A DNA stretch of 64,000 nt from a virus. Lineage: Duplodnaviria; Heunggongvirae; Uroviricota; Caudoviricetes. Both the position numbers and the translations under genes were made by a program. The stretch spans positions 64,001-128,000 of the IMG/VR virus record IMGVR_UViG_3300036770_004943; one strand, 5' to 3'. The notes beneath the pieces were generated by a model, which did not search any database, was not told where the DNA came from, and saw only the letters and a program-made list of their open reading frames with translations. This document shows positions 19,396 through 61,044 of the stretch, in pieces. The stretch's first letter is position 1, and each line of letters starts with the position of its first letter.

Positions 19396-19815
19396 ATGAA
19401 GAACCTGATTCGAAAAATAATGAAGGAGGAGATGGTAAGAAAAAAAATACACATGGATTTACCCAATTCTGTATTGAAAATGAATCGGATTTTCAAGGAA
19501 AATGGGTATGAACTATATGTCGTTGGTGGTGCTGTGAGAGATTTGTTATACGGTAATGAACCTAAAGATTTTGATTTAACTACAAACGCTAAACCCGAAG
19601 AAATCAAATCTATGTTGAATATGTATCGTACTATCGAATTAGGTGAACAGTTCGGTATTATTAATGTGATTACAGAAGATGGTCAGTATGAAATTGCCAC
19701 TTTTAGACGTGATTTATCTTTTAAAGATAAAAGTATGAGTTCTTTTTTAGTATATTTGAAAACGTTAAATAACGGTAGTTATGAACTATTTTTAGAGAAA
19801 CTAAAAATGAAATAA
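19396..19815 (+). CDS. cca: CCA-adding enzyme (class II tRNA nucleotidyltransferase), N-terminal fragment
   Basis: YVVGGAVRD, PKDFDLTT, QFG, EIATFRRD, then 34 unrelated residues and a stop. Confidence 0.85.
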   Translation: MKNLIRKIMKEEMVRKKIHMDLPNSVLKMNRIFKENGYELYVVGGAVRDLLYGNEPKDFDLTTNAKPEEIKSMLNMYRTIELGEQFGIINVITEDGQYEIATFRRDLSFKDKSMSSFLVYLKTLNNGSYELFLEKLKMK

Positions 19816-19855
19816 CTACATTCAGAAATATCATGATATTTATAAATAAAATATC

Positions 19856-20530
19856 ATGGAAAAAGGTTACATTTACAAATTAATAGATCCAACAAATAAT
19901 GAATGTAGATATATCGGTAAAACTATACAAAAACTTAAAGTTAGATTATATCGACATTTAAATGATATTGATAAAAGTATTAGCCATAAAAATAACTGGT
20001 TAATTGGTTTAAGAGATAAGGGTTTATTAAACGATGTTAAAATAGAAATTTTAGAAGAATGTGATTTATACATTTTAAACGAACGTGAGGTGTTTTGGAT
20101 TAGTGAGTTTAAAAATAACGGACATAAATTAACTAATCTAACAATCGGTGGTGATGTAGGTTCTATGGGTCATAAACATAGTGATGAGGCTAAAAGGAAA
20201 ATATCTGAGGTTTCTAAAAAAATGGATAGGTCACATATGAGGACTAAAGAATTTAGAGATAAAATTAGTAAATCACTTATTGGTAATAATAGACATAAGG
20301 GATCTAAACATAGTGAAGAAACAAAGAAAAAAATATCTGAAAGTAAAAAAGGTACTGTGAGTTGGAATGCACAGTCAGTTTTACAATTAGATAAAGAAGG
20401 TAAGGTGATAAAAGAGTGGAGGAGTGCTAAATACGCTGCCGAACATCTTGGTTTAAGTCAAGGTAATATTTGGTCAGTAATAAATGGTAATAGAAATAAA
20501 TGTGGTGGTTATAAATGGAAATTAAAATGA
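19856..20530 (+). CDS. GIY-YIG homing endonuclease with NUMOD3-like repeats
   Basis: GYIYKL...RYIGKT...R...H; HSDEAKRKIS and HSEETKKKIS; C-terminal HTH; own late motif at 19836-19845. Confidence 0.88.
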   Translation: MEKGYIYKLIDPTNNECRYIGKTIQKLKVRLYRHLNDIDKSISHKNNWLIGLRDKGLLNDVKIEILEECDLYILNEREVFWISEFKNNGHKLTNLTIGGDVGSMGHKHSDEAKRKISEVSKKMDRSHMRTKEFRDKISKSLIGNNRHKGSKHSEETKKKISESKKGTVSWNAQSVLQLDKEGKVIKEWRSAKYAAEHLGLSQGNIWSVINGNRNKCGGYKWKLK

Positions 20531-20760
20531 ACGAAAATAAAACAACCTATATAAATAGAGATGGTGATTTAACTATTAATGGAACTTTTAACTTTGAGGG
20601 TTCGTTAATTGAATTACGTAATATAATAGATAAAACTATTGAAGAATATAGTGAAGATACAAAGTGTGAATTAGCCACTTTTGGTAGTTTCCCACATAGA
20701 TGGTCTTCACATATAATTATTAAACAAGATAAAAATGGAAAACTGGGAACAAATAGCTAA
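20515..20760 (+). CDS. hypothetical protein inside the cca-splitting insertion
   Basis: ORF overlaps both the endonuclease stop and the cca C-fragment start. Confidence 0.55.
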   Translation: MEIKMNENKTTYINRDGDLTINGTFNFEGSLIELRNIIDKTIEEYSEDTKCELATFGSFPHRWSSHIIIKQDKNGKLGTNS

Positions 20761-22015
20761 AGAATTACTACCTAAAGAGTATAGTGAATTCATGAAATTT
20801 ACTGGTTCAGGTAGAAGACCTGACTCTGTAGAATTCACCACAATCGACCAAGACGTTAAGCGTCGTGATTTAACCATTAACGCTCTTTTCTATGACATTG
20901 ATAAAGGTGAAGTGGTTGATTTAGTTGGTGGTATTGGTGATATTGAAAGTAATGTAGTTAGAACCGTTGGTTCCGCTTCGGAACGTTTTGATGAGGATAA
21001 ATTACGTGTACTTAGAGCACTTAGATTCGCAGCCCGTGTTAATTCTAACGTAGATAAAGACATTGAATCTGCGATAAAAAGGGATAAAACACCAATTAGT
21101 GGGAATGGTTTACCTGTTTCACAAGAACGTATTAGAGATGAGTTTCTTAAAGGTATTAAACAGGCCAAATCCGTTGGTTATTTTACCCAATTAATAACCA
21201 AATATAATCTTTGGGATTGGATATTTGGTCGACTTGTAGTTACAACCGAACCCTTAATTGAGGTTAAAAACCCAATCGTACTTATAGCGTCTTTACTTAG
21301 AAGTAATGAACCTACTTTGATTGAAAAGACCCTAACTAATCAATTTAAATATACTGTTGAAGAAGTAAGGGAAATTGTTTTTTTAATTAAGTTTTTACTC
21401 CTCGGAGAAGATGTTTATAAATTACGTGAGAGGTTTGATGTCATTAGAATGGACACTGAAACATTAAAAACTTTCGGTAGTTTAATGGGTGTCCCTAATA
21501 AAATTATAAATACTTTTCTAAAATATCGTATAACAACTTCAGGTGAGGATTTAATGAAACAAGGTTTTAAAGGTCGTGAAATTGGTCAAGAAAAAGAAAG
21601 AATAGAAAAAGAAAAATTTAAAAAACTTATGAAAGAGTCCACAAAGAGAGTTTCTTATTCAGGTGTAATACTAAATGAGAAATCAAGAGAAATGTTAAAA
21701 AATTATATTAAATTCCCTAAAGACTGGGAGTTTATTGGACATCACATGACAATTAACATGGGACCAATAACAGAAGAATATAAACCACTTATAGGCCAAT
21801 CAGTAGATTTGTTAATTACCCATGTTGGGTCGACAGATAAAGTTGTTGCTGTTAAAGTTGAAACTGAAATTAAAACTAAAAATAAAACACCACACATTAC
21901 TATAGCTGTAGATAGACGTAATGGTGGTAAACCAGTAATGTCTAATGAAATAACTGATTGGGCTCTTATTTACCCATTTGAGGTTGAAGGAAAAATTGAA
22001 GAAATTTCTTTTTAA
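20735..22015 (+). CDS. cca: CCA-adding enzyme C-terminal fragment fused to a 2H phosphoesterase
   Basis: GRRPD..DVKRRDLTINAL, FDEDKLRVLRALRF, SQERIRDEF; C-terminal HHMT and PHIT (two HxT motifs) after 21638. Confidence 0.85.
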   Translation: MENWEQIAKELLPKEYSEFMKFTGSGRRPDSVEFTTIDQDVKRRDLTINALFYDIDKGEVVDLVGGIGDIESNVVRTVGSASERFDEDKLRVLRALRFAARVNSNVDKDIESAIKRDKTPISGNGLPVSQERIRDEFLKGIKQAKSVGYFTQLITKYNLWDWIFGRLVVTTEPLIEVKNPIVLIASLLRSNEPTLIEKTLTNQFKYTVEEVREIVFLIKFLLLGEDVYKLRERFDVIRMDTETLKTFGSLMGVPNKIINTFLKYRITTSGEDLMKQGFKGREIGQEKERIEKEKFKKLMKESTKRVSYSGVILNEKSREMLKNYIKFPKDWEFIGHHMTINMGPITEEYKPLIGQSVDLLITHVGSTDKVVAVKVETEIKTKNKTPHITIAVDRRNGGKPVMSNEITDWALIYPFEVEGKIEEISF

Positions 22016-22041
22016 TTTTTTGCCTAAGTTAAAAATATTTC

Positions 22042-22049
22042 TATCTTTG
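22042..22049 (+). promoter_or_regulatory. Bacteroidota -33/-7 promoter
   Basis: TTTG (22019-22022), 19-nt spacer, TATCTTTG. Confidence 0.75.
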
Positions 22050-22086
22050 TATTGTTAATTAATCAATCACCTAAAACGATAAAATT

Positions 22087-22725: not shown

Positions 22726-22730
22726 AAATT

Positions 22731-23200: not shown

Positions 23201-24337
23201 TTACGCCACTGTTATTCCAGCTTTATCGAATACAGTCTCAATCATAACATTAGAAACTTTATAAGGGTCACAATTAGCCGCCGGTCTTCTATCCTCAAAA
23301 TAACCCCTTTCATTGGTGTAAGTTTGTACTGGGATACGTATACTAGAACCTCTATCTGAATTGCCAAAACTAAATGTTTCTATGCTTGAAGTTTCGTGTT
23401 TCCCAGTTAATCTTTTGTCATTAAATTCACCATAAACTTCAATGTGTTCTTTATGTCTTTCAGATAGTTTATTACAGGCTTCTAATATTTTTTTAAGTCC
23501 ACCTTTTTCACGCATTTCTTTAGTTGAAAAATTAACGTGACACCCACTACCATTCCAATCACCGTTCACAGGTTTAGGGTGATAAGAAATCCCTAAACCT
23601 TTTTTCTCAGCAACTCGCTCAAGTATATAACGTGAAATCCATAATTGGTCTGAACCGTTTAAGGCAGTCACAGGACCGATTTGATACTCCCATTGACCTA
23701 TCAGTACTTCCGCATTAATTCCACCGATATTTAGACCTATTTCTGCACATTTAGTTAGATGTTCCTCTACTACATCCCTACCAATAACATTAAGACCACC
23801 CACACCACAATAATAATCTCCTTGTGGTCTTGGTTTTTCCGACCCTTGATTAAAACCTAATGGTAGACCACCACCCCATTTAAAATGATTTGTTTTTTCC
23901 GGTGCATGAGTAATTACATATTCTTGCTCCCACCCAAACCAAGGAACCTCTGAAAGGTTTGCATCGTATTCTTTAAATTTAAGTTCGGTTAATAATTCTC
24001 TTAAATTACCCCTTGTATTTGATTTGTGGGGTGTTTTACCATCGGGATTAAAAACTTCACAGAGAACTAATTTATGACCTTTACCTCTAAATGGGTCGTC
24101 AACTACATAGACAGGTTTTAAAACACAATCGGTACCGTCAAAACCGTATTCTGAACCACCAGCTTGTTTTGTTGAACTGCCATCAAAACTCCAAAGTGGA
24201 TATGATTCAGGATATCCTTGTTTTCCGTTACCATCTCGTTCTAAAATTTCAGTATTGTCAACAACTTTTGTTTTACTTCTTAGATTTTGGGGATTGTTAC
24301 CGTCCAACCAAATATACTCTAAAAAAACTTTACTCAT
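23201..24337 (-). CDS. glnII: glutamine synthetase type II
   Basis: WSFDGSST, QGDYYCGVG, INAEV..GQWEYQIGP, HPKP..GDWNGSGCHVNFST, RGSSIRIP, YFEDRRPAANCDPY. Confidence 0.92.
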   Translation of the reverse strand: MSKVFLEYIWLDGNNPQNLRSKTKVVDNTEILERDGNGKQGYPESYPLWSFDGSSTKQAGGSEYGFDGTDCVLKPVYVVDDPFRGKGHKLVLCEVFNPDGKTPHKSNTRGNLRELLTELKFKEYDANLSEVPWFGWEQEYVITHAPEKTNHFKWGGGLPLGFNQGSEKPRPQGDYYCGVGGLNVIGRDVVEEHLTKCAEIGLNIGGINAEVLIGQWEYQIGPVTALNGSDQLWISRYILERVAEKKGLGISYHPKPVNGDWNGSGCHVNFSTKEMREKGGLKKILEACNKLSERHKEHIEVYGEFNDKRLTGKHETSSIETFSFGNSDRGSSIRIPVQTYTNERGYFEDRRPAANCDPYKVSNVMIETVFDKAGITVA

Positions 24338-25863: not shown

Positions 25864-27804
25864 CTAATCTTGTAATAAATTAAATTCATTTAAATCATCA
25901 TTGTTAATATTATCTTCTTCACCGATTAAGTTTTTAATACCTTCAGTCATCATAATAATATCTTCATTTTTTTGTCTACCCTCTAATAGAAGTTTATCTA
26001 TAATATTTTTATCTTTATAACGGAAACTTTCACCGAATCCACCTCCAGTTTCTTCAGCACCTCCAGTTTCTTCAGCACCTCCAGTTTCCTCACCAGTCTC
26101 ACCTTCACCACCAAATTCTTCACCACCAACACCTAAGTCAAGACCCCCACCAAATCCTCCTCCACCAAACGATTCACCGCCACCAGCTTCACCGCCACCA
26201 GCTTCACCGCCACCAGTTTCCCCACTTTCAGTTCCGGCGGGTAAACCAATTTCACCATAAAGTTTTGTTACACGGTCAAAAAAACCAGTTTTCTTAATGT
26301 TTTCAGGTGTGTTTTCCAGTTCTTTTGATGCAGCTCTTTCCATCATTTGTTGCTCTAGGTCGGTTTTAATTTCTTCATCAGTCCAATTAAAAATATTTTT
26401 CTTAGCCCAAGTATGTGACGAAGGGGCTATACCACCATCAATTTGTGATACAAGGTCTTTGTAAAGAGTAACTTTCTCTTTCCATTGTTCAACTTTTAAC
26501 ATCTCACCTTGAGTTGATGGGTTTGTAAGATTTAAAGTAAAATTATTTAAATCATCCGTAAAACCTAAAATAAATAAATGTATAATTGCTAATTTATTTA
26601 ATTCTTGAATCATAGATTGCTGTATACGATTAATTGTTCTCGCGAAACGTATATCTAATAAGGCTAAATTTTTACCCTCACCGGCTGGCTCATCAAAACC
26701 TAAAAAAGGTTTAGGTACCCTAAGTGCTGTTAATAATTTTCTTTGAATATATTCTATATCAGCGATTTGATCTAAATTACTGGCACCAGCTAAGGTATCT
26801 ATAGGGTTTGGTGCGTTAGGATCCCTTACAGGTACGAAATAATCTTGGTCTACAGCCAATGTATTGTATCTTAGGTCAACCTGACCAGATTTTTGGTCAA
26901 CTAATTGTTGTCTTTTAAATTTATTAGCAACTTTTTGTACGTATGCATCAACATCTTTATCATCAATGTTACCCACATAAATTTTAAATACGCGTCTTTC
27001 AGGTGCTCTAACAACACGATAAACTAACATTGCGTCTTCAGCCAATAACATTTGTTTCCAAATACGTCTAGCTTTTTCTAACATTGAGGTTCCGTAAGGT
27101 AAACGTCTATCGTCACCTAATAAACGAAAATGTGCAATTTCCCAAGGATTAAAATCCATATTTTTTTCACGCCAGTGAAAAATTACTTGTTTTTTCTTTG
27201 TTTGTTGTTCAGTGTTATTACCTTCTTTTTTGGTGGGGAACATTCCTTCTTCTTTTCGCTCAATTTCAATATTGGTTAACTGTGAAGAACCTATAACCCC
27301 TTTTTTATTATCAATCTTTAAAAAAACAAAATTGTCACCATATTTACACGTATTACGAGTCCACATTGGTAAATTTGTTTGAATATCGAGGACATTATAA
27401 AACAAATCTTCTAAAACGTTTTTTACTCTTTTAGAATTTGATTGAATTGTTAAAACTTTACCTTGTTCACTTGTTGTACAAGATTCTTCAGCCATAATAT
27501 CTAAAGCCGCTGAAATTTCAGGTGTAAATTCCATAGCTTCATAATCCATGTAGGAAGCTATTCTTGAAGTTTCATAATAAACTGCTTTTTGGTATAATTC
27601 ATTATCTACTCTTTGCCACTGTGCTTCAAGATAACCTTTTTGTTGTAACTCTAATTTTTGTTTATCATATTCTTGTTTTGATTGTACGGTAATTAAATCA
27701 CCGTCACCAAAACTATATTTTGGTGTTGTTCTTTCAGGTTTTTTATTTTGACCAAAAAGGTAAAATAATTTCTGATATACTGTTAAATCTTTATTATCTG
27801 ACAT
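25864..27804 (-). CDS. portal protein (T4 gp20-like) with Gly/Glu-rich tail
   Basis: PEISAALDI, LAEDAMLVYRVVRAPERRVFKIYVGN, DYFVPVR, IDTLAG, LLTALRVPKPFL. Confidence 0.95.
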   Translation of the reverse strand: MSDNKDLTVYQKLFYLFGQNKKPERTTPKYSFGDGDLITVQSKQEYDKQKLELQQKGYLEAQWQRVDNELYQKAVYYETSRIASYMDYEAMEFTPEISAALDIMAEESCTTSEQGKVLTIQSNSKRVKNVLEDLFYNVLDIQTNLPMWTRNTCKYGDNFVFLKIDNKKGVIGSSQLTNIEIERKEEGMFPTKKEGNNTEQQTKKKQVIFHWREKNMDFNPWEIAHFRLLGDDRRLPYGTSMLEKARRIWKQMLLAEDAMLVYRVVRAPERRVFKIYVGNIDDKDVDAYVQKVANKFKRQQLVDQKSGQVDLRYNTLAVDQDYFVPVRDPNAPNPIDTLAGASNLDQIADIEYIQRKLLTALRVPKPFLGFDEPAGEGKNLALLDIRFARTINRIQQSMIQELNKLAIIHLFILGFTDDLNNFTLNLTNPSTQGEMLKVEQWKEKVTLYKDLVSQIDGGIAPSSHTWAKKNIFNWTDEEIKTDLEQQMMERAASKELENTPENIKKTGFFDRVTKLYGEIGLPAGTESGETGGGEAGGGEAGGGESFGGGGFGGGLDLGVGGEEFGGEGETGEETGGAEETGGAEETGGGFGESFRYKDKNIIDKLLLEGRQKNEDIIMMTEGIKNLIGEEDNINNDDLNEFNLLQD

Positions 27805-27892: not shown

Positions 27893-29722
27893 TTAAGTTT
27901 TTCTATTTATTATTTTCTTATTCATTTCTTTATCCTTAAAACCAGACATACCAAAAAACACCCAATTGTGTTCAGATAACGCGGACTGAATTTGTTTAGG
28001 TGTAGATTCTCTGTTTACTACTGAATTATATTCCGAAGTATTTAGTTCACTAATGGTTTCACTAGTATTAGTAGATACTACCCAAGAATCTAACATTGCT
28101 TTAGCCTGTCCTTTACTTTTTTCAAAATCTTTAAAAGATGTTTGAGAAACATAACAACACATGGCAATTGCCATAAGTAAATCATCATGATACCCTTTCA
28201 TGTGGTCAGGGCGACCATTTTTAAACACAAAAGTATCCATCTCAGCTATCGCTCTAATTGAACGTACTTTAAAAGAATCTAACCTAACAGATTCTTCTAA
28301 TTTTGTGATAATTGTATTTCTGTTTTTTTGAAAATTTAGACCTGGTAATTTACCGTCACGCATATGACGTTCTAAGTTTTTATTGTTTGTTACCGAATCA
28401 ATACCCAAAACAACATCGTAATACATTTTTTTGGACGAATAATTAAGTTCAATCATTTTTAAAACCGAAGAGACACCATAACCGCCCGTAATATCAACAA
28501 CAACAAAGGCCTCATACCTATTACCATATTCTACAGCAATTTCACCTAAAGTATCGGGTGCAACTTTACCGTGATATTCGGCAACTTGAAATCCTGTGGT
28601 AAAATCCATAACACAAATACTTGCGAAATCATCTGCAGAACCAGATGCGGCATCAACAGAAAGAATGTATTCATGTCCTAATTGAGGATCTTCCCAAACC
28701 CACATGTTACCATCCAACCATTCAGTTCTAATAGGGTCTTTTACATTATTTTTCTTTTGATATTCAACATATTTTGAGTTAATAACATTATCACCAGAAC
28801 CGTTAAAGGCACACAATAATTCTTGTGCAATTGTACGAGGGTTATTATTTAACTGACCACACATCATCTCAAACCAAGGAGCGGTTGGTTGCCAACCATC
28901 AAGTTCTAATTGTTCAAAATGACTGTAATCCATGTCAATTTTTTCTTCTATAACATCTCCCGCATCATTTTTCTTTTGCCAAACCATATTTTTGTTGTAA
29001 CGAGGGTCTTGGAACCATCTCATCTCAACAATGTTAAACGGGTTATTAGTTTTTTCTTTGGTTTTAGCTGCCATATATGTTTTATAATATAATGGGTCCA
29101 TACCGTTTGGTGTACTAATAAGGATGGCTCCACCACCTGTAGAAAGTGCTGGTTGAGCTGCCGCGTAAACTTCTTCACCACCTTCAATATAGGCCGCCTC
29201 ATCCATGACAAGTAATGTTGGTGTATAACCACGTAACGCATCTAATGATGTTGCAACAGCTTTAACCTCGGAACCGTTTTTTAATCTATAATGTTTTGCA
29301 GAGTTTTTTTCAGAATCATACCATGAATCATCATTACCAGATGACCAAACATTCATCCAAGTCGGTAACTGTGATGTAAAATCTTTAACTTTTTTAAGAA
29401 ATTCAATCGCAGTTTCTTGTTTATTTGCTAAAATAAGAACCCTTTGTGGACTATTTGGGTCGGCCAAAGCCGTCATTACCGCTATATAAGCAGCAGTTGT
29501 GGTAGAAACACCCGCCTGACGAGGTTTCATCACTATATTAAAACGGTTATCTTTATAAGCCGTTATTAATTCTTTTTGTTTGGGGAATAATTTGAATCTG
29601 ACAAAACCTTTCTGTGTTTGGTCAAAAGTTTCAAGATAGTTCTCAATGGCATATATCGGGTCTTTCATAGACTTACCGATTTCCATCAATTTTTGAGCCT
29701 TACTTTGTGGTACATTTGACAT
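27893..29722 (-). CDS. terL: terminase large subunit (T4 gp17-like)
   Basis: KPRQAGVST Walker A, LLVMDEAAY Walker B, ISTPNG, LSVDAASG, HDDLLMA. Confidence 0.95.
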   Translation of the reverse strand: MSNVPQSKAQKLMEIGKSMKDPIYAIENYLETFDQTQKGFVRFKLFPKQKELITAYKDNRFNIVMKPRQAGVSTTTAAYIAVMTALADPNSPQRVLILANKQETAIEFLKKVKDFTSQLPTWMNVWSSGNDDSWYDSEKNSAKHYRLKNGSEVKAVATSLDALRGYTPTLLVMDEAAYIEGGEEVYAAAQPALSTGGGAILISTPNGMDPLYYKTYMAAKTKEKTNNPFNIVEMRWFQDPRYNKNMVWQKKNDAGDVIEEKIDMDYSHFEQLELDGWQPTAPWFEMMCGQLNNNPRTIAQELLCAFNGSGDNVINSKYVEYQKKNNVKDPIRTEWLDGNMWVWEDPQLGHEYILSVDAASGSADDFASICVMDFTTGFQVAEYHGKVAPDTLGEIAVEYGNRYEAFVVVDITGGYGVSSVLKMIELNYSSKKMYYDVVLGIDSVTNNKNLERHMRDGKLPGLNFQKNRNTIITKLEESVRLDSFKVRSIRAIAEMDTFVFKNGRPDHMKGYHDDLLMAIAMCCYVSQTSFKDFEKSKGQAKAMLDSWVVSTNTSETISELNTSEYNSVVNRESTPKQIQSALSEHNWVFFGMSGFKDKEMNKKIINRKT

Positions 29723-29768: not shown

Positions 29769-32585
29769 TTATTCCACATTTGATAACTCTTTGTGTAAGA
29801 TGTTAGCAACTTCTTCAATAAAAGTTTCCTTATTAGGTGACCAACCACTTAAAAAGTGATCTAAATCAGTATAATCAAAAGTTAAGTAACTTTCAAATCT
29901 ACCAGAACCTTGGTCCATTAAATAAGTTATTAAATGGTAAACCGAATTAGGTAAATCATCTTCATACCAAACAAAATCATCAGCATAAGCCTGAATATCA
30001 TCCATTAAATAATCATATCTAAAAGTGTAAACTCTTTCTGTTTTTTTATTTTTTGTTACAATTTCTTTTTGTCTTACAAAATCACTACCAAAAACATCTT
30101 CTACCATAGATAAAACATTATTTATAACATCAGTTGAAGCCAAATTGTTATAAGCGTCGTTATAAGATTTAAGGATAATTTTTCTAAGTTGTTTTAATTC
30201 AGGAGAATGCTCTATCAAAGATTGTAATTGATAGTCTGACATACCTTCAATTCTTTCATCATATAAAGCAACGGTAAATTTATCTAATTCATCGTCAATA
30301 TCCTCAACCCAATTATCAAACTCATCAACCCAATCTAAATCTAATGTTACTTTTTTACCTCTAAAATGGTTAAATAAAAAATCAACAATTTCTTTTTTAA
30401 TTTCAAGATTATCTAAAAAATAATAAATGTCTTCTAAACTTCCATAATGAGTAGCATCAATGTCTAAACTTTTTAAATCACCTTCTAAAATTTTATAAAC
30501 ATCATGTTCACCGTTAAAAAATCCGGCTAACCTACCTAAGTCACTAAAAGCAACGTAATCACTTTTACCTTCAGGAAATAATAAACCACGATTTGTGTCA
30601 CCTTTTAGTAAATCGTAAGTACTGGATAAAATAGCCTCTCTTAATCCAGTTTTTTCCCCGACAGGGGCATCTTGGTAGGCTTTTATTAAAATTAACGGGG
30701 TTAAATCATATAAACTATTTCTATTATAATAATTAAGATATAATTGATAATAGTCACGCTCAAAAAAACTGTTCCATAAAATTTTTGGTGGTAGGGTGTA
30801 AGAACTCCAATCAGTTTTAAATATTTCTTTAACTAAAGAATCAAACTCCCCGATACTAGGAAAAAACTCTATAATATTTGTATTATCTTGTAATACATCC
30901 TCAATAGTATATTTTAAATCATCTTCATCGTTATATTTCATTTTTATATAACTTATAAAAGCCTTTCTTGGGTTTTTATAAAAAGAATTTAAATCGTTTA
31001 ATGTTATGTCGGTTATTAATTTTTTAGATATTAATTCATTTAAAACGTTTAAGCCATTTTCAGTTGAACCCAAGTATTCTAAAACTTTTTCGGTTGGAAA
31101 ACCGTAATTTTCTAAAGTACTTTTTAGGTAATCAATATTATTTAAAATATATTTTAAACGTTCAGGGGTAATTTTTTTGTTAGGGTCATTAGATTCCATC
31201 GGAAATTTTTCTTTTATTAGAATGTTCATACCTCTAACATCTATTTCTTGAAATAGATTAACACCAATTGATTTGGCATAACCAAAAATTAAATCAACAT
31301 CTTTAAACAATTCCATTAATTTTTGACCCGTCCTTGAACCCCACCAATCATCTGGTCTTTTACTACCATAAAAACTATTTAAAAGTCCAAAAATATTATT
31401 TTGTCCCCGTTCTTTATTTAAAAATTCTTTGAAGTTTGGGTCTGATGATGCATTTAAAAACTCATCTAAAGATATTGTGCCTTTAGAAACGGCATTTAAA
31501 AGACGGTCATAATGGTCTCCGGCAAACATTTTTACCAAAGGGTTTATACCCACCGATTTATAACCATTCCAAATTTCTTTTATTTTTTCACCCCATTCAC
31601 TATCTTTTGTAACATAAAGGTTGATTAAATCTTTAAAACTAAAATATTCGAAAATAGATATGTTTCTTTTTTTAAGATAATTAATTAAAGGTTCTAAACC
31701 TATTTTTTTAGTAAGTTCTTCTGATGATAAAGATTTTAATGGGTCCAAACCTTTAGACTCTAACCAAGCAATTAAGTCTTGACCAAAATAAAAATTATCA
31801 ACCCCTTTTAAATTATTCTTAAAAAGATATTCAATAATCACATCTTTAATCGTATCCCAATTAGAACCTAAATTTTCTGCCGCTTTTTGTATACTTGTTG
31901 GATTATCGGGAGCGTCAAAAGCTTGAGCCTCACCGTTATTTTTTATTAAAAACGCAGTTTTATACCAAGGATTAGTTTGAGGTTCTTTTTTATTAATAGT
32001 ATAAATTAGTGTACCTTCAGTGGTGTATCTTTTAAAATAATTGTCACTATCTTTAGTTGTGGTACACCATTTTGTACCTGAACCATAAAAACAAGAAGCT
32101 CGATGTGATTTAGGTATTAAAATTAAAAGATTACTATCATTATATAAAACATTAGCTTCTAACTTCTTAACATCAGACTTACTAAGTTTTTCACCAACCA
32201 TTTTAAAAATCTCTAAAGCAATACCATAATCTTTGTAGTTATTAATATCTTTAGGATTTTTATAAATGTTTTGAAAAATTTTGGCTGCAGGCGAATTATC
32301 AGTAAGTAACCAACTCCATTTTTTTTCTTCAATTAATTCATCTAAAAATTCTTTAGTTAGTTTGTTAACGTTTTTATGGAATAAATTAATAGCCTTAACG
32401 ATTCTAGCCTGAGAAACACCCAACCTACTACCATAAACCATCCAATCAAGGTATTTGTTGTTACCTGATGGGTCTAATCTTGATAACCCTTCTATAGTAT
32501 CTTTACGAACTTCAGGGTATTTTTTTATAACATCATCTAAACGACTCTCTAAAAGTAACTCTTCTAATAAAAAAGTATTTCTCAT
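29769..32585 (-). CDS. DPSGNxKY/YGxGTxWC family protein, late copy with long C-terminal extension
   Basis: LLLE|SRLDD, DPSGNNKYLDWM, ASCFYGSGTKWCTT; late motif at 32590-32599. Confidence 0.75.
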   Translation of the reverse strand: MRNTFLLEELLLESRLDDVIKKYPEVRKDTIEGLSRLDPSGNNKYLDWMVYGSRLGVSQARIVKAINLFHKNVNKLTKEFLDELIEEKKWSWLLTDNSPAAKIFQNIYKNPKDINNYKDYGIALEIFKMVGEKLSKSDVKKLEANVLYNDSNLLILIPKSHRASCFYGSGTKWCTTTKDSDNYFKRYTTEGTLIYTINKKEPQTNPWYKTAFLIKNNGEAQAFDAPDNPTSIQKAAENLGSNWDTIKDVIIEYLFKNNLKGVDNFYFGQDLIAWLESKGLDPLKSLSSEELTKKIGLEPLINYLKKRNISIFEYFSFKDLINLYVTKDSEWGEKIKEIWNGYKSVGINPLVKMFAGDHYDRLLNAVSKGTISLDEFLNASSDPNFKEFLNKERGQNNIFGLLNSFYGSKRPDDWWGSRTGQKLMELFKDVDLIFGYAKSIGVNLFQEIDVRGMNILIKEKFPMESNDPNKKITPERLKYILNNIDYLKSTLENYGFPTEKVLEYLGSTENGLNVLNELISKKLITDITLNDLNSFYKNPRKAFISYIKMKYNDEDDLKYTIEDVLQDNTNIIEFFPSIGEFDSLVKEIFKTDWSSYTLPPKILWNSFFERDYYQLYLNYYNRNSLYDLTPLILIKAYQDAPVGEKTGLREAILSSTYDLLKGDTNRGLLFPEGKSDYVAFSDLGRLAGFFNGEHDVYKILEGDLKSLDIDATHYGSLEDIYYFLDNLEIKKEIVDFLFNHFRGKKVTLDLDWVDEFDNWVEDIDDELDKFTVALYDERIEGMSDYQLQSLIEHSPELKQLRKIILKSYNDAYNNLASTDVINNVLSMVEDVFGSDFVRQKEIVTKNKKTERVYTFRYDYLMDDIQAYADDFVWYEDDLPNSVYHLITYLMDQGSGRFESYLTFDYTDLDHFLSGWSPNKETFIEEVANILHKELSNVE

Positions 32586-38562: not shown

Positions 38563-38598
38563 CTACATTATAAATATTCGTGATATTTATTAAAAAGA

Positions 38599-44795: not shown

Positions 44796-45083
44796 TTACC
44801 CCTTTTTCTTTTTCTGTCCATAAGGAATCGTCCTTGTTGGCATATAATCTCTAAATTTAGTATCCTTTAAATTTCCTGGGATTTTTGGAAAATCCATTCT
44901 ATCAGTGTGTAGTTTAAAAAATCTGTCAAATTCTGTTTTAAGAAGTTCCATAACTTCTGTATGAGTTAGATTTGGGTTACTTTTTTTAATGTCTATCATT
45001 GCATCGGTGAAACTAGTTTGAACATCACCAAAACCTTCTCTAAGTAATCTTTTAGTTTTATTAAAATTATCCATTTTGAACAT
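44796..45083 (-). CDS. late hypothetical protein with LRE leader
   Basis: TKRLLRE|GF; overlaps the end of the DHH gene. Confidence 0.55.
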   Translation of the reverse strand: MFKMDNFNKTKRLLREGFGDVQTSFTDAMIDIKKSNPNLTHTEVMELLKTEFDRFFKLHTDRMDFPKIPGNLKDTKFRDYMPTRTIPYGQKKKKG

Positions 45084-46509
45084 TTGTTGGGTTATTTGCT
45101 ATTATTTTTGACGTTAATTCTTTTTCGAATTCGGCTTGAAAGTCTTTTAAATAAGGCACCCCTTGTTTACCAAAATACATCAAACCTGAAATATTAGTTA
45201 TACACTTGTGTCCACCACTATTAGCCTGAATCATGTCCCACCCTGAAACCTTTAACATTTTAAGGGCTTTAATTTCATTATCATTTAAAGTTGTGTAAGG
45301 TTTATCCATTACTTTTTTAATTGCATTTCTCCATCTTTCTACAGTATAACCTTCTTTCGCACCTTGAGGTATTGAGTCTAACCCCACTACACCACCTTCT
45401 GTTTGACCGTAAATAGCGATAAGGTCGTTGTAAGTAAATCCCACAGATTCTTGACCGAAATCTTTATGTTTTTCCGCAAAATATTTGATAGTATCTACCG
45501 TGATCTCAAATTGTTCTAATTGTGGTTTAAATTTTAATAATACTTCTTGTGCAATTTCCCCTAAATTTACACCTTTAAGACTTCTTTCAGCTTTAAAAGG
45601 GTTACAACTTGCTTGTAATAAACCTAAAGGCCAAGCTATAATTAAGAAATTCGCTTCGGGAAAGTTTTTGAAAGGAACGTATCTATCATAAGAACCTGGT
45701 TTTATCATAGAACCACCACCATATTGTGAGATAATACCTGTTGTTGGGTTATACTTCACATTTTGACTAGTTTTCATAGTCTCAGCATATTGTTTAGCGT
45801 GTTGGGTCATAACTTCTGGTGATGCGTAACCTTCTTCTTTAGCCAATCTAACAATATTTTGGTAAATACTTAAAAGTGAAGCTGAAGACTCCATAACTAA
45901 ACGTTCTAGAAATCTTGGTTTGTTTTTATAGGCTAACAATAATTTATTAGTTACAAGGGACATTGCCTTTTTGTTTTGTTCTAAACTTTTTTCTTTTTCT
46001 AAAACAAAGACATAATTCATAACCTGCTCAGGTGTTATACCCATTCTTGCATAATCGGCACTATCAATAGTGGATATCATTAAAATATCTGAGTGGGGGA
46101 AAATCTCTGCCGGTGAAATAATTTGAGATATAGTCTCAACATTTGAACGGGATTGTCTAAAGGATTTAGACGTTTCTTTTTCAACACCAACCTGTTTATC
46201 ATGGTGATCGGTATGTATTACAAACATTGGTTTACCGTGGGCAAAATCAACCAAAACCGGCATGATATCACCTTTTGCCATAGGTTTTTTAATACTAAAT
46301 TCTTTATCACCGTACTGTATTACCTCAGTCTCAACCACTTTAATACCGTGCTGTTCAAGATAATTTTTCATCGCAATAGCGGTTGTTACACCGTCTAAAT
46401 CTTGGTGGAAATATATTTTCGCATTTTCATATCGTTGTGCTAATTCGTTTATACCCCTAATACCAGTTTCGGTTATTAAGAATTTTTTTTCTAACAATAA
46501 AGTTGACAT
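45067..46509 (-). CDS. DHH/DHHA1-family phosphoesterase with leader
   Basis: FHQDLDG, VLVDFA, HTDHHD, IDSAD, SGGHK; MSTLLLEKKFLITE|; late motif near 46526-46534. Confidence 0.8.
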   Translation of the reverse strand: MSTLLLEKKFLITETGIRGINELAQRYENAKIYFHQDLDGVTTAIAMKNYLEQHGIKVVETEVIQYGDKEFSIKKPMAKGDIMPVLVDFAHGKPMFVIHTDHHDKQVGVEKETSKSFRQSRSNVETISQIISPAEIFPHSDILMISTIDSADYARMGITPEQVMNYVFVLEKEKSLEQNKKAMSLVTNKLLLAYKNKPRFLERLVMESSASLLSIYQNIVRLAKEEGYASPEVMTQHAKQYAETMKTSQNVKYNPTTGIISQYGGGSMIKPGSYDRYVPFKNFPEANFLIIAWPLGLLQASCNPFKAERSLKGVNLGEIAQEVLLKFKPQLEQFEITVDTIKYFAEKHKDFGQESVGFTYNDLIAIYGQTEGGVVGLDSIPQGAKEGYTVERWRNAIKKVMDKPYTTLNDNEIKALKMLKVSGWDMIQANSGGHKCITNISGLMYFGKQGVPYLKDFQAEFEKELTSKIIANNPTNVQNG

Positions 46510-46533
46510 TAAAATTACTTTTAATAATAAATA

Positions 46534-46755
46534 TCACGAATTTTCTTTCAATTTTTCTTCTTGAATTTTTATGTATTTGTCTAAATATTGTTTAGCTTTG
46601 TAGAGGTCTTGAATACCATTTTTATGTTTCCAACGAGTCACGTATTTAACAACATTACCCTCAAAAAAATCAAGGTCGTGTTGTGCGGAATAGTCCCACA
46701 TTTCTGTCTTTCCTTGATTATAATGGGACGGATGTTCAACTTGTTCTTTACTCAT
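46534..46755 (-). CDS. DUF3310-like protein
   Basis: VEHPSHY...FFEGNVVKYVTRWKHKNGIQDLYKAKQYL. Confidence 0.85.
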   Translation of the reverse strand: MSKEQVEHPSHYNQGKTEMWDYSAQHDLDFFEGNVVKYVTRWKHKNGIQDLYKAKQYLDKYIKIQEEKLKENS

Positions 46756-49908: not shown

Positions 49909-50087
49909 GTAGAATTAAAGAACAATTTATCGACGAAATTAATTGTGTAATTGAAGACTACGATTATCAATACACAGAATGGCTTAAACAACAAGAGGAT
50001 AAAGCTATTGTAGATTTTTACGAGGAAAATAAAGAAAGGTTTGAGGGTGAAAAAATATTTAATCTAACAAATACCTACCCTTTTTAG
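49905..50087 (+). CDS. early hypothetical protein
   Basis: ATGA-coupled to the previous ORF. Confidence 0.55.
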   Translation: MSRIKEQFIDEINCVIEDYDYQYTEWLKQQEDKAIVDFYEENKERFEGEKIFNLTNTYPF

Positions 50088-51778
50088 TCTGTTGGGAATA
50101 TGTAGTATTTATCACCATCTATTGTTACATAATCGTAACTACCAGTCCTACTAAAATATTCATAATCTAAATCATCTGCCATATCATTAATTAATTCGGT
50201 TTCGTCAATACCGACCAAACCGTTTTTAATTGCATTTTTATCTAAACCAGTTTTACTACTCCAGTAACCAAAGTCTTCCAACCAATCTAATGGGTCGTCC
50301 GTTAAACGACTAACATAATGTTCGTAATAATCGTTATAAAGTCTATCTTTAATGGATTCTAAAAGTTTATCGTTGGTTTTTTCTATAGACTCATTTTCGG
50401 CCTCCAATTCTGATAATTCTTGCTCTTCGTCTTCATCTAATTCATCATATCTACCCATCATTTCGTCGATTTCTTCTTGATTACTTTCCATGATTGATTG
50501 GTTAACTTCCCACTCTTCAACCATGACTTTAGTTTCTTTATCTAACCTTTTTCCTTCGTGTAGTATATCATCATTATCTAAATCCCCTGCATAACTTTCA
50601 GCCATATCACGTGCAACACCTCTTGGGTCATTGATGTATATATATTTTTCAGGGTTATTACCGATAGCTTCCCAAACGCCTAAATCACTAATGTAATTTT
50701 CCGCCCATTCGTGTTTAGCTCTTTCAACTTCATCCGTTGTCGCTACAGCATAATCATCACTACCGTCTACGGTATAAACACGCATACCGTAATAACCGTA
50801 ATTTCTTTGTTCAACTTCTTCAACTTCTTCTTCACTTAAAGCCAAATGTTCAACCAAAGCTTGGATGTAAGGATCCTCAACGTAAGCCATGTTGGCATAC
50901 ATTTCATCCATTTTTGTTTGCATGTATTTTAGAATAACTCCCTTAACAGATGTTGGAACCGTATCTAAATAATCATAACCAGAAGAACCTCTACTCGCAA
51001 TATTAGTGTCTTCAGCATTCCATAATTTAATTTTATCAGTATTTAAAGTCCAAACCGAGGGGTTACCTGGTGTTGAGGTGACATATTTATTTACTTTTTT
51101 GACATATGGTATTTGCCAAGCAACTTTATATTCAGGGTTATCAGAATTTTTACTTTTATTAATCACATAAATTAAAAATTTACGGTCGGTTTCACGTTTA
51201 AAATGTGAATCAGTTTCTTTTGATGTTGTACACCATTTAGTTCCGGCACCATAAACACAAGAAGCACCCCAAGTTTTAGGTCTAACCACTAACCAATTAC
51301 CATCTTCGTAAATTTTGTCAACACCTTTTTTAGCCTCTTTTTCTTCGTCTTTTCTTTGTTTTCTTTCTTTTGCTTGGGCTAAATCACTACCTAAGTAATG
51401 AATCATATCACTATCAGTAAATTTATATTGATAAAGGTCTGTAGTACCGTATTTTTCACCAGAAACTTCATCATTATAGACCATATATGGTAATAATTCG
51501 TGAAATTTTTTAACTAACGTCATTAAAAAGCCAGCAATCTCACCTGCTTCTGGTGATTTAAACTGCATTGTTTCGTCTAAAATATCTTCGACTGATTGCA
51601 TCGTTGGTTCGTGTACCATAGCCTTAACCAACCATTCTAAATATTTTTGATTACCTGATGGGTCATTTTTTACAAAATAATCCACAATTTCAGAACTAAC
51701 GTCAGGGAATTTTTTTCTAACATCATCAACCCGATTTTCTGATAAAACTTTTCTTATATTTTCTAACGTGATTTTCAT
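50084..51778 (-). CDS. DPSGNxKY/YGxGTxWC family protein, late copy with acidic C-terminal extension
   Basis: VLSE|NRVDD, DPSGNQKYLEWL, ASCVYGAGTKWCTT. Confidence 0.75.
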   Translation of the reverse strand: MKITLENIRKVLSENRVDDVRKKFPDVSSEIVDYFVKNDPSGNQKYLEWLVKAMVHEPTMQSVEDILDETMQFKSPEAGEIAGFLMTLVKKFHELLPYMVYNDEVSGEKYGTTDLYQYKFTDSDMIHYLGSDLAQAKERKQRKDEEKEAKKGVDKIYEDGNWLVVRPKTWGASCVYGAGTKWCTTSKETDSHFKRETDRKFLIYVINKSKNSDNPEYKVAWQIPYVKKVNKYVTSTPGNPSVWTLNTDKIKLWNAEDTNIASRGSSGYDYLDTVPTSVKGVILKYMQTKMDEMYANMAYVEDPYIQALVEHLALSEEEVEEVEQRNYGYYGMRVYTVDGSDDYAVATTDEVERAKHEWAENYISDLGVWEAIGNNPEKYIYINDPRGVARDMAESYAGDLDNDDILHEGKRLDKETKVMVEEWEVNQSIMESNQEEIDEMMGRYDELDEDEEQELSELEAENESIEKTNDKLLESIKDRLYNDYYEHYVSRLTDDPLDWLEDFGYWSSKTGLDKNAIKNGLVGIDETELINDMADDLDYEYFSRTGSYDYVTIDGDKYYIFPTD

Positions 51779-57974: not shown

Positions 57975-58020
57975 ATAAATTACCTAAATTTGTGGGGTGA
58001 CAGTTATTAAAGTTTTTATA

Positions 58021-58663: not shown

Positions 58664-58883
58664 TATTTTATTCTACACAGGTCTTTCAATGGTGGGATTC
58701 CCAACCATTATTTTATTTTTCTTTATTTTTTTACATATATCTTCAGAAAAAAAAGAAATAAATGAAGAGGTTAGAAAAGTATATGATACTGTAACCGTTA
58801 AAAAAGTGGTAAAAATTTACGATACAGTTTACGTAAAAAAAACAAAATGGATAGAAAAAGTAAAAACCGACACAATTAATTAA
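58647..58883 (+). CDS. small membrane-anchored protein
   Basis: One transmembrane helix; DTV, DTV and DTI motifs in the exposed tail. Confidence 0.55.
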   Translation: MKKTLDILFYTGLSMVGFPTIILFFFIFLHISSEKKEINEEVRKVYDTVTVKKVVKIYDTVYVKKTKWIEKVKTDTIN

Positions 58884-59857
58884 CTGTGTGTTTCATAAAA
58901 TTTACCTATCTTATCTTTATGATAATCTTCAGCCCTCATAACCCCCGACCAAAAAGCGTGAGCTGATTCTAAACCGTAAACATCTTTTACCATGTCGGAT
59001 ATATTGTGAGCATCAATTTCCCCGTCTGAGGCATCGTAAAAAACCATATCACCGTCAATGTTAATATGAAGAGCCACTTTACTCATATCAAATTCTTCGT
59101 CTAAATAATCTAAAAAATAATCAGAAATATCTTTAATTGATTTAGTTTTAGGGATAAAATAAAATAAAGAACTTGTATTACTTTGATACCTATTAAACTG
59201 AACGTCTTCTTTTGCTGTCGTACACCAACGAGTTCCGGCACCGTAAGTACAAGAAGACCTGTGTGTTGTTGGTATAATAACTAACCAATAGTCATTATCC
59301 ATTAATTTAATGGACTCTTTTTTGATATCACTTTTAGACGGCAATTGTTTAATTGCGTTAGTTATTTCAAACAATAAATAATGGTCATAATATGAATTAA
59401 TATCTTTTGGATTTTTCATTATATTTTCTAATTCAGCTATCGGGTATCTAAATTTAAAATAAGGTGATGGAGTACCATAAGAAATTGAAAATTCTTTTGG
59501 GTTAGATATTGCACTCCAAGCCACAACCTTATCGATATTTTCTTTAGTTAATTTATTTTGTAAATTATGAAAGTTAGTAATCCCTGTAATAAGGTTTTCA
59601 ATTAACATACTAGCAACGTTAAAGGGGTGGAATTTACCTGTGGCTTTTTTAATTTCTTTTAAGGCCCACATTAAATATTTTTGGTTTCCTGAAGGATCAG
59701 AATTTACCAAATCTACAAACCACTCAGGCATTTTTCTACCTTCTTTATAAGATTGTGGTATTAAATAATCTTGGAAATCTTTAATAACAAAAGATTTAGC
59801 ATCATCTAGTCTTCCTTCCGATAAAATTTGTTCCGATATAATTTTTCTAACTAACAT
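58880..59857 (-). CDS. DPSGNxKY/YGxGTxWC family protein, late copy
   Basis: ILSE|GRLDD, DPSGNQKYLMWA, SSCTYGAGTRWCTT; late motif near 59869-59877. Confidence 0.75.
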   Translation of the reverse strand: MLVRKIISEQILSEGRLDDAKSFVIKDFQDYLIPQSYKEGRKMPEWFVDLVNSDPSGNQKYLMWALKEIKKATGKFHPFNVASMLIENLITGITNFHNLQNKLTKENIDKVVAWSAISNPKEFSISYGTPSPYFKFRYPIAELENIMKNPKDINSYYDHYLLFEITNAIKQLPSKSDIKKESIKLMDNDYWLVIIPTTHRSSCTYGAGTRWCTTAKEDVQFNRYQSNTSSLFYFIPKTKSIKDISDYFLDYLDEEFDMSKVALHINIDGDMVFYDASDGEIDAHNISDMVKDVYGLESAHAFWSGVMRAEDYHKDKIGKFYETHS

Positions 59858-59911
59858 GTTTTCTAATTAATAAATATTCTATATCTTTGTAATAATAAAT
59901 AACTTACATTA

Positions 59912-60181
59912 ATGGATTTAAAAGAATTTCTAGAAAAAGTTGTCGGTTCGGGCTTAATCCATCTTTCCGAAGGGGGGTGGGAGATAAAACCTTTTGAAAT
60001 TAATACCGGAATTAGGTGTATAACCTTTAAGGGTGAAAGAATCCAAGATTATGGTAACACGGATCCGTACATACTTGAATCGATTGTGCAAGGAATGAAT
60101 TACGCTTACGGTATGGCAATAAAAGATGTTGTTGGAAGTGGTAACGTGTCACAAAGTATAAAACCCTTTAAGTTTATTTAA
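59912..60181 (+). CDS. early hypothetical protein
   Basis: TATCTTTG at 59882-59889. Confidence 0.6.
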   Translation: MDLKEFLEKVVGSGLIHLSEGGWEIKPFEINTGIRCITFKGERIQDYGNTDPYILESIVQGMNYAYGMAIKDVVGSGNVSQSIKPFKFI

Positions 60182-60186
60182 AGGGG

Positions 60187-61044
60187 TTATTCTTTTTCAA
60201 TAACAATTTTTCTTTTACCACCTTCAGAAGTATCGTAAATAACGAAATGAACTTCAGGGTACATAGTACTTAATTCATTTTCAAGAAAATCTTGTGCTGC
60301 TTTAACATTTCTTTTGTCATCATCAGAAAATCCTAAAGATATTTTTTTGTATTTACCGGCAACCATATGTTTTTTAACACCATCAAGTAATTTTTTAACA
60401 AAATTTTCAATCGCTACTTTCTTAGCGTGTTCAGGATTTGACGCTCCGCCTTTAACTTCAAGACCAAATCTTTCACCAAATTCTTCAGAAGAAACAGGAT
60501 AAAATTCCCCTCTTTCATCTAAATACAAATCTAATAATTGTGTGGCATTAAGCCCCTGAGTTAAACTACTTGGTAATTCTTTTTGAATGTTTGTAAACAT
60601 CATTCTTTTTTCGTCGTCACTTAAAACCATTTTAACAAAAAGTTTAACCCCCTTTTTTAAAGTTTCAGGACTATGACCTCTAGCCGTATTGATAGCGAAA
60701 GGGTTTGCGTGTGTTAAAGCCTCAATAAATTTTTTGTAACTTGGTGCAAAACTACCATTATGTATAGCCTTTTCAGCGTCAACCAAGAAAGATTTGTTAT
60801 CAGTAAAGTCAGCAAATGAATTTGGTGTTGTTCTATAATTAGGGTCTGACCTAAAATGAGCAAACTCTTCAGTTGAAACTTTTACGGGGACCCAACTACC
60901 GTTTTCATTTTTTTCCATGTTAACTTTAGTGGGCATTCTTAAAATATTATCATCCCAATCAAAAACATAAGACCTTAATTTATTTTCAAGTAGTGATTTT
61001 CTAAGTTTTTTATATTGTGTTTCAGTAATTAAAAATTTTTTCAT
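60187..61044 (-). CDS. HAD-superfamily phosphatase with leader
   Basis: SLLE|NKLRSYVFDWDDN (DxD), INTARGH, KK, FSDDDKRN; late motif near 61059-61068. Confidence 0.75.
   Translation of the reverse strand: MKKFLITETQYKKLRKSLLENKLRSYVFDWDDNILRMPTKVNMEKNENGSWVPVKVSTEEFAHFRSDPNYRTTPNSFADFTDNKSFLVDAEKAIHNGSFAPSYKKFIEALTHANPFAINTARGHSPETLKKGVKLFVKMVLSDDEKRMMFTNIQKELPSSLTQGLNATQLLDLYLDERGEFYPVSSEEFGERFGLEVKGGASNPEHAKKVAIENFVKKLLDGVKKHMVAGKYKKISLGFSDDDKRNVKAAQDFLENELSTMYPEVHFVIYDTSEGGKRKIVIEKE

Follow-up and report, generated by a model that had tools for sequence, protein, structure and literature searches.

Introduction

Proteins that a phage injects into its host form the first line against host defences, and only few of them are known, namely IPI* and Alt of T4, the Dar proteins of P1, the virion RNA polymerases (vRNAPs) of N4 and phiKZ, and the polyvalent proteins. 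In T4, enzymatic or anti-defence cargo is packed into the head and injected together with the DNA (PMC9026906). A 10-residue N-terminal capsid-targeting sequence (CTS) suffices for packaging into the T4 head and delivery to the next cell, even of foreign proteins, and the head protease gp21 cleaves after L/I-x-E (PMC9026906). Here, we analyzed a stretch of 64,000 nucleotides (the window; bases 64001-128000 of the 130-kb IMG/VR virus record IMGVR_UViG_3300036770_004943, G+C content about 30%) that encodes four nucleotide-handling enzymes behind boxes of putative late promoters. These are a CCA-adding enzyme with a 2H phosphoesterase domain, a Pol-beta superfamily nucleotidyltransferase (NTase), a DHH/DHHA1 phosphoesterase, and a HAD-fold phosphatase. 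A preliminary description of the sequence had suggested that they are packaged into the virion and act at the start of the next infection. The view that the four enzymes are a variation on T4-type head cargo is partly supported by our data, and we tentatively regard late, leader-loaded head cargo that includes a trio of tRNA repair enzymes as the best explanation of the whole.

The likeness to the T4 internal proteins IPI, IPII, and IPIII and to Alt lies in the fact that presumably late proteins begin with a short peptide whose last residues are I/L-x-E, and a protease of the gp21 family and a capsid protein of the gp23 family are found here as well. The leader consensus is MKxLI+KIL+E or KKFLITE, in comparison to MKTYQEFIAE in T4, and unlike the T4 cargo, the proposed cargo would consist of enzymes for nucleic-acid ends and nucleotides (CCA-2H, HAD, DHH, and NTase). 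We know of no T4 head cargo of the CCA-2H, HAD, DHH, or NTase types. In phiKZ, 201phi2-1, and SPN3US, a gp21-like protease trims a large set of head proteins at S/A-x-E, and these proteins are ejected into the host (PMC9026906). The enzymes described here would likewise be trimmed after Glu and ejected, but their P3 residue is hydrophobic and not small, the lineage differs, and the known cargo of the phiKZ type comprises the vRNAP and inner-body proteins, not RNA-end enzymes. The polyvalent proteins, for which injection has been inferred, also bring together modules of the Pol-beta NTase, GNAT, and 2H types with peptidoglycan hydrolases (Iyer et al., 2017, PMC5512222), and there is no mention of DHH or CCA in the text of that study. 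In the window, by contrast, the modules are separate, single-domain (except for CCA-2H), and equipped with their own leaders, and multi-domain forms occur only in relatives. Their processing would be carried out by a T4-type head protease at h-x-E (h, hydrophobic residue) and not by an embedded metallopeptidase.

With respect to function, the proposed set resembles the tRNA repair by Pnkp and Rnl of T4, in which healing by cyclic phosphodiesterase and phosphatase activities is coupled to the resealing or rebuilding of tRNA. In contrast to this system, neither a kinase nor an RNA ligase came up in the 130-kb record, the target would be the 3' terminus and not the anticodon loop, and the genes have late-type promoters and leaders, whereas the T4 repair genes are expressed early. 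The fusion of a CCA-adding enzyme to a phosphoesterase has a parallel in E. coli, where the enzyme carries an HD phosphohydrolase domain; here, the 2H domain takes the place of HD. In jumbo phages, 2H, HAD, and CCA enzymes have been attributed to RNA repair, and DHH has been interpreted as a counter-nucleotide enzyme (Iyer et al., 2021, PMC7824862), and the repair relay considered below matches these ideas, with a different delivery route.

Results and discussion

The coordinates of the four enzymes, their promoter boxes, and the associated head genes are compiled in Table 1. The box ATATTTAT was found 33 times in the window, as compared to 15.3 +/- 3.8 times in shuffled sequences, and 59 times in the whole record. 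Stronger evidence than this excess is the position of the box: in the record, 46 of the sites are found at most 60 nt ahead of one of 150 open reading frames (ORFs), on the same strand and mostly at a distance of 12-45 nt to the ATG. The genes behind the box include those for portal, terminase, prohead protease, sheath, tube, an adaptor-like protein, and several homing endonucleases. The DNA polymerase gene has no ATATTTAT box upstream, and the ligase gene has a TAnnTTTG box in its place, an element that precedes many genes and that we take to be the Bacteroidota housekeeping -7 element. By analogy to T4, and as the box is common to structural genes, it is reasonable to infer that the ATATTTAT genes are late. 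All four enzyme genes lie 13-25 nt downstream of a box of this type, in agreement with the preliminary description; the box is exact for NTase, DHH, and HAD, and the CCA gene has the variant ATATTTAC. Relatives of the CCA gene have ATATTTA[CT] at equal distance, and in two of them, L177 and L178, the canonical box occupies this position. Some promoters are compact and divergent, with ATATTTAT back to back with TAnnTTTG or with a second late box on the opposite strand (intergenic regions 59857-59912, 61044-61105, and 38562-38599).

Table 1. Positions of the four enzymes, their putative late boxes, and associated genes in the window; arrows mark predicted cleavage sites.
Feature	Position	Strand	Remarks
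CCA-adding enzyme, piece 1 (139 aa)	19396-19815	+	leader aa 1-11, catalytic GGAVRD...DFD head
CCA-adding enzyme, piece 2 (426 aa)	20735-22015	+	motifs C-E, EDKLR, then 2H domain
2H phosphoesterase domain (aa 302-426 of piece 2)	21638-22015	+	HHMT...PHIT after L-M-K-E↓S junction
GIY-YIG/NUMOD homing endonuclease inside CCA gene	19856-20530	+	Pfam GIY-YIG, NUMOD3, I-HmuI_NUMOD-like
Pol-beta superfamily NTase	37759-38562	-	leader aa 1-9 (MKNTVQIKE); phrog_36119, E 2e-51
DHH/DHHA1 phosphoesterase	45067-46509	-	leader aa 1-14 (MSTLLLEKKFLITE)
HAD-fold phosphatase	60187-61044	-	leader aa 1-8 (MKKFLITE), second L-L-E↓N site at aa 20
Late-type box of CCA gene	19383-19390	+	variant ATATTTAC, 13 nt before start codon, read directly
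Late box of NTase gene	38570-38577		exact ATATTTAT
Late box of DHH gene	46527-46534		exact ATATTTAT
Late box of HAD gene	61061-61068		exact ATATTTAT
Late box of prohead protease gene	19362-19369		
Late box of GIY-YIG/NUMOD endonuclease gene	19836-19843		ATATTTAT
Prohead serine protease, T4 gp21-type	18560-19342	-	Peptidase_S77, E 8.6e-28; divergent from CCA gene
Major capsid protein, gp23-type	12193-13980	-	Pfam Gp23, E 2e-69; predicted site I-N-E60↓T61
Portal, T4-like	25864-27804		
Large terminase (TerL), T4-like	27893-29722		

The leaders that had been described for the four enzymes are all present, in the case of the CCA enzyme on its first piece: MKNLIRKIMKE↓ (CCA), MKNTVQIKE↓ (NTase), MSTLLLEKKFLITE↓ (DHH), and MKKFLITE↓ (HAD). 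They end with LITE in HAD and DHH, IKE in NTase, and IMKE in CCA (ILKE in the relative L167), and HAD and DHH share the octapeptide KKFLITET. In the structural models, the leaders of DHH and HAD lie outside the folds, as residues 1-17 of DHH and 1-5 of HAD have pLDDT values below 50 and the fold matches start at about residues 20-22. The pattern h-h-x-E was found within residues 4-15 of 14 of the 42 late-box proteins but only of 8 of the 85 others (Fisher p 0.0013), and relative to the background in internal windows (5.6%), the leaders of late proteins are about sixfold enriched in it. Among 44 distinct N-termini of DHH relatives, the leaders are 8-20 residues long and have freely diverged; in 38, h-x-E is directly followed by the conserved (S/T/G)G(I/L)R, four begin at (S/T/G)G(I/L)R without a leader, and 34 keep the ATATTTAT box. 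CCA relatives keep MKxLI+KxLKE↓ and HAD relatives MKKxhhxE↓, and the distant HAD homologs L102 and L104, which do not have the 20-residue leader, stand behind TAnnTTTG-like boxes.

The protease that would remove these leaders is 35% identical to T4 gp21 (E 4e-26), and the predicted site of the capsid protein aligns in BLASTP with L-T-E65↓A66 of T4 gp23, which we take to be the gp23 maturation site. Of the features of T4-type cargo systems, the window contains an S77 protease together with a gp23 capsid protein that has a homologous cleavage site, as well as N-terminal peptides of about 10 residues ending in L/I-x-E on genes with putative late promoters. The fusion of effector domains to wall hydrolases or lysozyme in late genes is a published argument for injection (PMC5512222), and fusions to wall hydrolases were found in relatives of DHH and NTase (see below). 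Protease, capsid site, leader statistics, leaderless homologs, and fusions are all, as indirect comparative evidence, in favor of the packaging part of the preliminary description, and we consider it probable that the four enzymes are head cargo.

Further proteins with such leaders or boxes were noticed. A SprT-like Zn metallopeptidase (15605-16081, +) has a late box, the leader MKESIKKILRE, and the motif HELIH, with a Pfam E value of 4.5e-5 just under the cut-off, and is a candidate for a further cargo enzyme. In the head-gene cluster, a 504-aa protein (16986-18500, -) begins with the leader MNIDKLILE and contains an OmpA-type peptidoglycan-binding domain (E 7e-9). A SNF2-type helicase is encoded behind a late box at G000:C1:25375-27192 (L185:5375-7192, +); its best PHROG is a family of 1881-residue helicases, and it recalls the virion-packaged DarB-type proteins of P1.

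All four enzymes are real, and their catalytic motifs are intact. The CCA enzyme and the 2H domain had been placed together at 19396-22015, and both domains are indeed encoded there, but not by one gene, as an endonuclease cassette splits it. Piece 1 matches Pfam PolyA_pol (PF01743) at positions 1-80 (E 3.4e-19) and phrog_2244, and piece 2 matches PolyA_pol at positions 74-126 (E 2e-14) and phrog_2244 (tRNA nucleotidyltransferase, E 1e-33). Of the hallmarks of class II CCA-adding enzymes, the head profile with the catalytic motif GGxVRD...DxD (read as GGAVRDLLYGNEPKDFDL) and the nucleotide-selection element EDxxR of motif D (EDKLRVLRALRF in piece 2) were found, but not the single continuous polypeptide, with the split falling between motifs B and C. 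The gap (window 19815-20760) holds an 81-aa ORF in addition to the endonuclease. No group I intron was found in it by Rfam, either at the gathering score or with E values up to 10, and the gene was treated as split and not as spliced. The CCA gene of L167 (510 aa, 81% identity) is unsplit, and the more distant L172 and L173 have the same split with both pieces intact, in L173 without the 81-aa ORF. As the split persists in relatives with intact pieces, the insertion is tolerated.

The 2H domain follows an h-h-x-E junction that is kept in relatives. Its two H-x-T/S motifs (HHMT and PHIT) are kept in nine of the ten relatives read, and the protein of L181 (304 aa) has no 2H tail. The match of the tail to tRNA_lig_CPD is weak (20.4 bits with a cut-off of 23, E 3.8e-4), phrog_36523 is matched with an E value of 2.8e-9, and a PDB sequence search gave no match. 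The named neighbours of the tail in the atlas all belong to the 2H clan (tRNA_lig_CPD, 2H-SAK, Acb1, and LigT), with scores of only 0.77-0.87. In these comparisons, the domain appears to be closest to tRNA-ligase CPD and 2H-SAK. The fusion of CCA and 2H is kept in 14 relatives.

The HAD motifs I-IV of the phosphatase (D29 and D31 in DWDDN, T120, K208, and D241-D243 in SDDD) do not vary among 11 sequences. The protein itself matched nothing in Pfam or PHROG, and its 11 relatives matched no HAD family in Pfam. Foldseek did not retrieve a clear match of the model (pLDDT 81) from the PDB, and PDB sequence and profile searches gave nothing useful. With the exhaustive aligner (VIA), the top matches were 5uj0_B (Z 10.5, rmsd 3.1 over 132 residues), 1ltq (Z 9.8), and 4xrp_A (Z 9.8), of which two (Z 10.5 and 9.8) are the 3'-phosphatase of T4 Pnkp and one (Z 9.8) is Pnkp1, the phosphatase from an RNA-repair complex of bacteria; no generic HAD exceeded 8.4. 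In the atlas, viral HAD clusters were matched by shape (DUF2608, HAD IIIB, and HAD_SAK_1). Judging from the model, the enzyme appears to be nearest to polynucleotide 3'-phosphatases of the T4 Pnkp kind. In P0241 and P0242, HAD is fused to a paralog domain with the pattern SCxYG...WC (SCxYGGGTKWC), and members of this family, which bear leaders, lie on either side of the HAD gene of the window. Five copies of the paralog family phrog_17056 were seen (58880-59857, 61454-62869, 50084-51778, 29769-32585, and 9694-10452), four with leader and late box and one leaderless with a host-type box; two of them flank the HAD gene.

In the DHH protein, the motif residues D37, D39, D88, D101-H102-H103, and D149 as well as G432-G433-H434 of DHHA1 are invariant in 24 sequences. 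The Pfam DHH match of the window protein stays below the cut-off (E 1.2e-3), and PDB sequence and profile searches gave nothing useful. The model (pLDDT 78.6) shows the two-domain DHH fold, and Foldseek retrieved only DHH proteins with it (probability 0.93-1.0), among them RecJ, GdpP, DhhP, PggH, and NrnA. These matches do not single out a subfamily (RecJ, NrnA, or GdpP) and thereby a substrate. Homologs with 56-89% identity were found on 259 viral contigs, and the protein is too conserved and too widespread for a variable anti-defence accessory gene, which was ruled out. Long forms of the relatives (n=145) are mostly fused to PG_binding_1, M23, GH19, or VanY. They have leaders of the MKNLIRQIIEE or MKDLIIKIITE type that end with h-x-E↓(S/G)G, and linkers of the KKLILTE↓T type (e.g., KKKLILTE↓T) connect the DHH module to the hydrolase. 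In about 17 relatives (640-651 aa), the C-terminus consists of a sigma factor of the ECF type (Sigma70_r2 and r4_2, E about 1e-15), for example at L025:2995-4938 and L048:724-2649; the leader is present in some of them, and others begin precisely at the cleavage point. The 933-aa protein P0121 has the same DHH-ECF sigma fusion, and no homolog of the DHH-fused sigma domain is encoded in the 130-kb record itself. We would like to draw attention to the DHH-sigma and DHH-lysin fusions, which, as far as we are aware, have not been described previously.

The NTase has invariant G75-S76, D87xD89, and E131, which correspond to hG[GS], [DE]x[DE], and the third carboxylate. Each of the 16 members of the family gave matches to NTP_transf_2 (best E 4.5e-5) and MTPAP-like_central, and 8 of the 16 match SidM_N, the N-domain of the AMPylase DrrA; the window copy reaches 18 bits with NTP_transf_2 at a cut-off of 21. 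The PDB profile search matched DrrA (E 1.4e-4), and the NTase resembles both poly(A)-polymerase palms and DrrA. In other phages, the NTase is fused to VanY, to PG_binding with tail lysozyme or SLT, to M23, to GNAT, to ParB, or to MORN repeats, and in P0092 it is fused to a full CCA-adding enzyme. In the 1072-aa polyprotein P0013, it precedes seven modules that are each headed by (I/L/V)-x-E↓SNDFDW, and the protein resembles a chain of cargo modules that a protease could separate. The element DF(D/E)W also follows the leader in the CCA relatives L174 and L177, and it does so in two small ORFs of the record itself (G000 6601-7077 and 6159-6638).

We propose that the four enzymes would be transcribed from phage late ATATTTAT promoters, and that each would be made as a precursor with an N-terminal peptide of 8-20 residues ending in (I/L)-x-E, comparable to the T4 CTS. 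The peptide would carry the enzyme into the prohead core, where the gp21-type protease would remove it after Glu and probably also free the 2H domain at L-M-K-E↓S, and the mature enzymes would exit with the DNA at the next infection. In the new cell, the 2H domain (a putative 2',3'-cyclic phosphodiesterase), the Pnkp-like HAD enzyme, and the CCA enzyme could then heal and rebuild damaged tRNA 3' ends: 2H would open the cyclic phosphate, HAD would remove the phosphate, and the CCA enzyme would rebuild the end. This order had been part of the preliminary description and is biochemically coherent. The relay is supported by the CCA-2H fusion, by the HAD fold, which has its closest match in the 3'-phosphatase of T4 Pnkp, and by the Rosetta-stone link between NTase and CCA in another phage, and we give it an even chance of being correct. 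That both parts hold, i.e., that the enzymes are cargo and also carry out this repair at the beginning of infection, is doubtful. The trio could also finish CCA-less tRNAs of the phage itself from time zero. DHH and NTase would be cargo effectors; for the earlier idea that they destroy or spoof signalling nucleotides, we found no specific support, as nothing favours such nucleotides over the hydrolysis of nanoRNA or single-stranded DNA, RNA tailing, or protein AMPylation.

Alternative explanations and significance

Several aspects weigh against head cargo. The cleavage motif L/I-x-E carries little information, with [LIM]-x-E occurring in about 24% of internal 22-residue windows, and ATATTTAT also drives homing endonucleases and so marks more than virion proteins. 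In the CCA enzyme, the leader is confined to piece 1, and piece 2, which has neither a promoter box nor a leader of its own, could bring the 2H domain into the head only by binding to piece 1. The DHH protein is conserved far beyond what is typical for T4 internal proteins, the PG_binding_1 domain of its long relatives occurs in endolysins too, and the fusion of DHH to an ECF sigma factor in about 17 relatives points to an intracellular role in transcription, although an injected takeover factor would fit equally well. One may ask whether there is a toolkit at all, or whether these are four unrelated late genes in a phage in which the box stands at 46 of 150 genes (about a third) and N-terminal I/L-x-E is common in a Lys/Glu/Ile-rich proteome. 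The spread of the four genes over 42 kb would agree with such a coincidence, as would the presence of [LIM]-x-E within residues 4-25 of 34 of the 85 non-late proteins. Nevertheless, we regard it as very unlikely, since the stricter h-h-x-E pattern is clearly enriched over its internal background and tied to late genes, since HAD and DHH have KKFLITET in common, and since Rosetta-stone fusions join NTase to CCA and HAD to a leader-bearing paralog family.

Another explanation is that the enzymes serve late in the producing cell without being packaged: CCA-2H and HAD would maintain the phage tRNA pool during the translation of structural proteins, DHH and NTase would have other cytoplasmic jobs, and the N-terminal peptides would be a shared helix or a translation-start feature. 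No tRNA genes were detected in the window or elsewhere in the 130-kb record, which is about 40% complete, but three relatives that are 70-100% complete have 9-27 tRNA genes each, and only 7 of the 39 tRNA genes examined in relatives end with an encoded CCA (about 80% do not). As these many CCA-less tRNA genes mean that late translation could make use of the CCA enzyme in the producing cell, the large arrays provide it with a sufficient in-cell role, and the earlier statement that late expression makes little sense for use in the same cell was too strong. The in-cell and the injected roles of the CCA enzyme are compatible. Non-virion genes such as those of homing endonucleases behind the late box and the sigma factor fusions of some DHH relatives fit the in-cell explanation as well, and published surveys read phage CCA, 2H, and HAD as in-cell RNA repair (PMC7824862; PMC3622015). 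We nonetheless consider it rather unlikely that packaging plays no role, as this would not explain why the E↓ junction is kept while the leaders vary, why leaderless homologs stand behind host-type promoters, why the same peptides serve as polyprotein linkers, why modules are fused to cell-wall hydrolases, and why the major capsid protein has a cleavage site of the same type. It is also conceivable that the enzymes are head cargo for entry and host takeover, and not for RNA repair or signal quenching. In the same way as the injected T4 Alt modifies RNA polymerase, the NTase could AMPylate host proteins or tail host RNA, DHH could act with wall-breaching or transcription-redirecting modules, and CCA-2H and HAD could have substrates other than damaged tRNA. 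The fusions of DHH to M23, GH19, VanY, PG_binding, and ECF sigma, the DrrA match of the NTase, and its fusion to GNAT agree with this, and in polyvalent proteins, Pol-beta NTases and GNATs are read as protein modifiers and the 2H domains are argued not to be repair enzymes (PMC5512222). We judge a pure takeover function to be unlikely, because the HAD fold is closest to RNA-end 3'-phosphatases, 14 relatives have 2H physically joined to an enzyme for tRNA 3' ends, and an NTase-CCA fusion exists.

Should the four enzymes indeed travel in the head, the list of injected functions would grow by tRNA-end repair and nucleotide chemistry, and the targeting-peptide logic of T4 would be a general and evolvable loading system in environmental jumbo phages. 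If they serve only in the producing cell, they would be an ordinary set of enzymes for tRNA maturation in a phage with many tRNA genes. Concrete and cheap predictions follow, as exact cleavage sites, substrates, and the homologs that are packaged or not packaged can be named. A broader possibility, which we mention with much reserve, is that widespread T4-like jumbo phages of Bacteroidota pre-load their heads with an enzyme kit by means of an expanded capsid-targeting and protease system. Such a kit would include the tRNA 3'-end set and, in some members, the DHH-ECF sigma protein, and translation repair and transcription takeover could precede phage gene expression.

Source record and additional genes

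The record is best explained as a genome fragment of a jumbo myophage that has not been cultured, with head genes of the T4 type and early promoters of the Bacteroidota type; CheckV estimated the completeness of the record at about 40%, and the sheath and tube genes lie in its first half. Deposited phages showed no nucleotide similarity to the record, the closest cultured terminase (Flavobacterium phage immuto) is only 31% identical, and the DHH protein matched solely metagenomic huge-phage records. Near-complete relatives have tRNA arrays of at least 20 genes, at G001:C1:12000-22500 (L189) and G003:C1:188500-200500 (L190).

Several other genes of the window were noted. An HNH/endonuclease VII-like gene (11407-12099) adjoins the capsid gene. 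A glutamine-synthetase-like protein (23201-24337, -) matches Gln-synt_C (E 8e-19), and an AAA+ protein of 838 aa (42222-44738, +) that resembles ClpB and ATP-dependent proteases matches phrog_4871 (E 1e-265). The profile of thymidylate synthase (419 aa; 39456-41439, -) is matched in two stretches, which suggests an insertion, and the gene is preceded by a late-box ORF of 243 aa whose C-terminus resembles a homing endonuclease.

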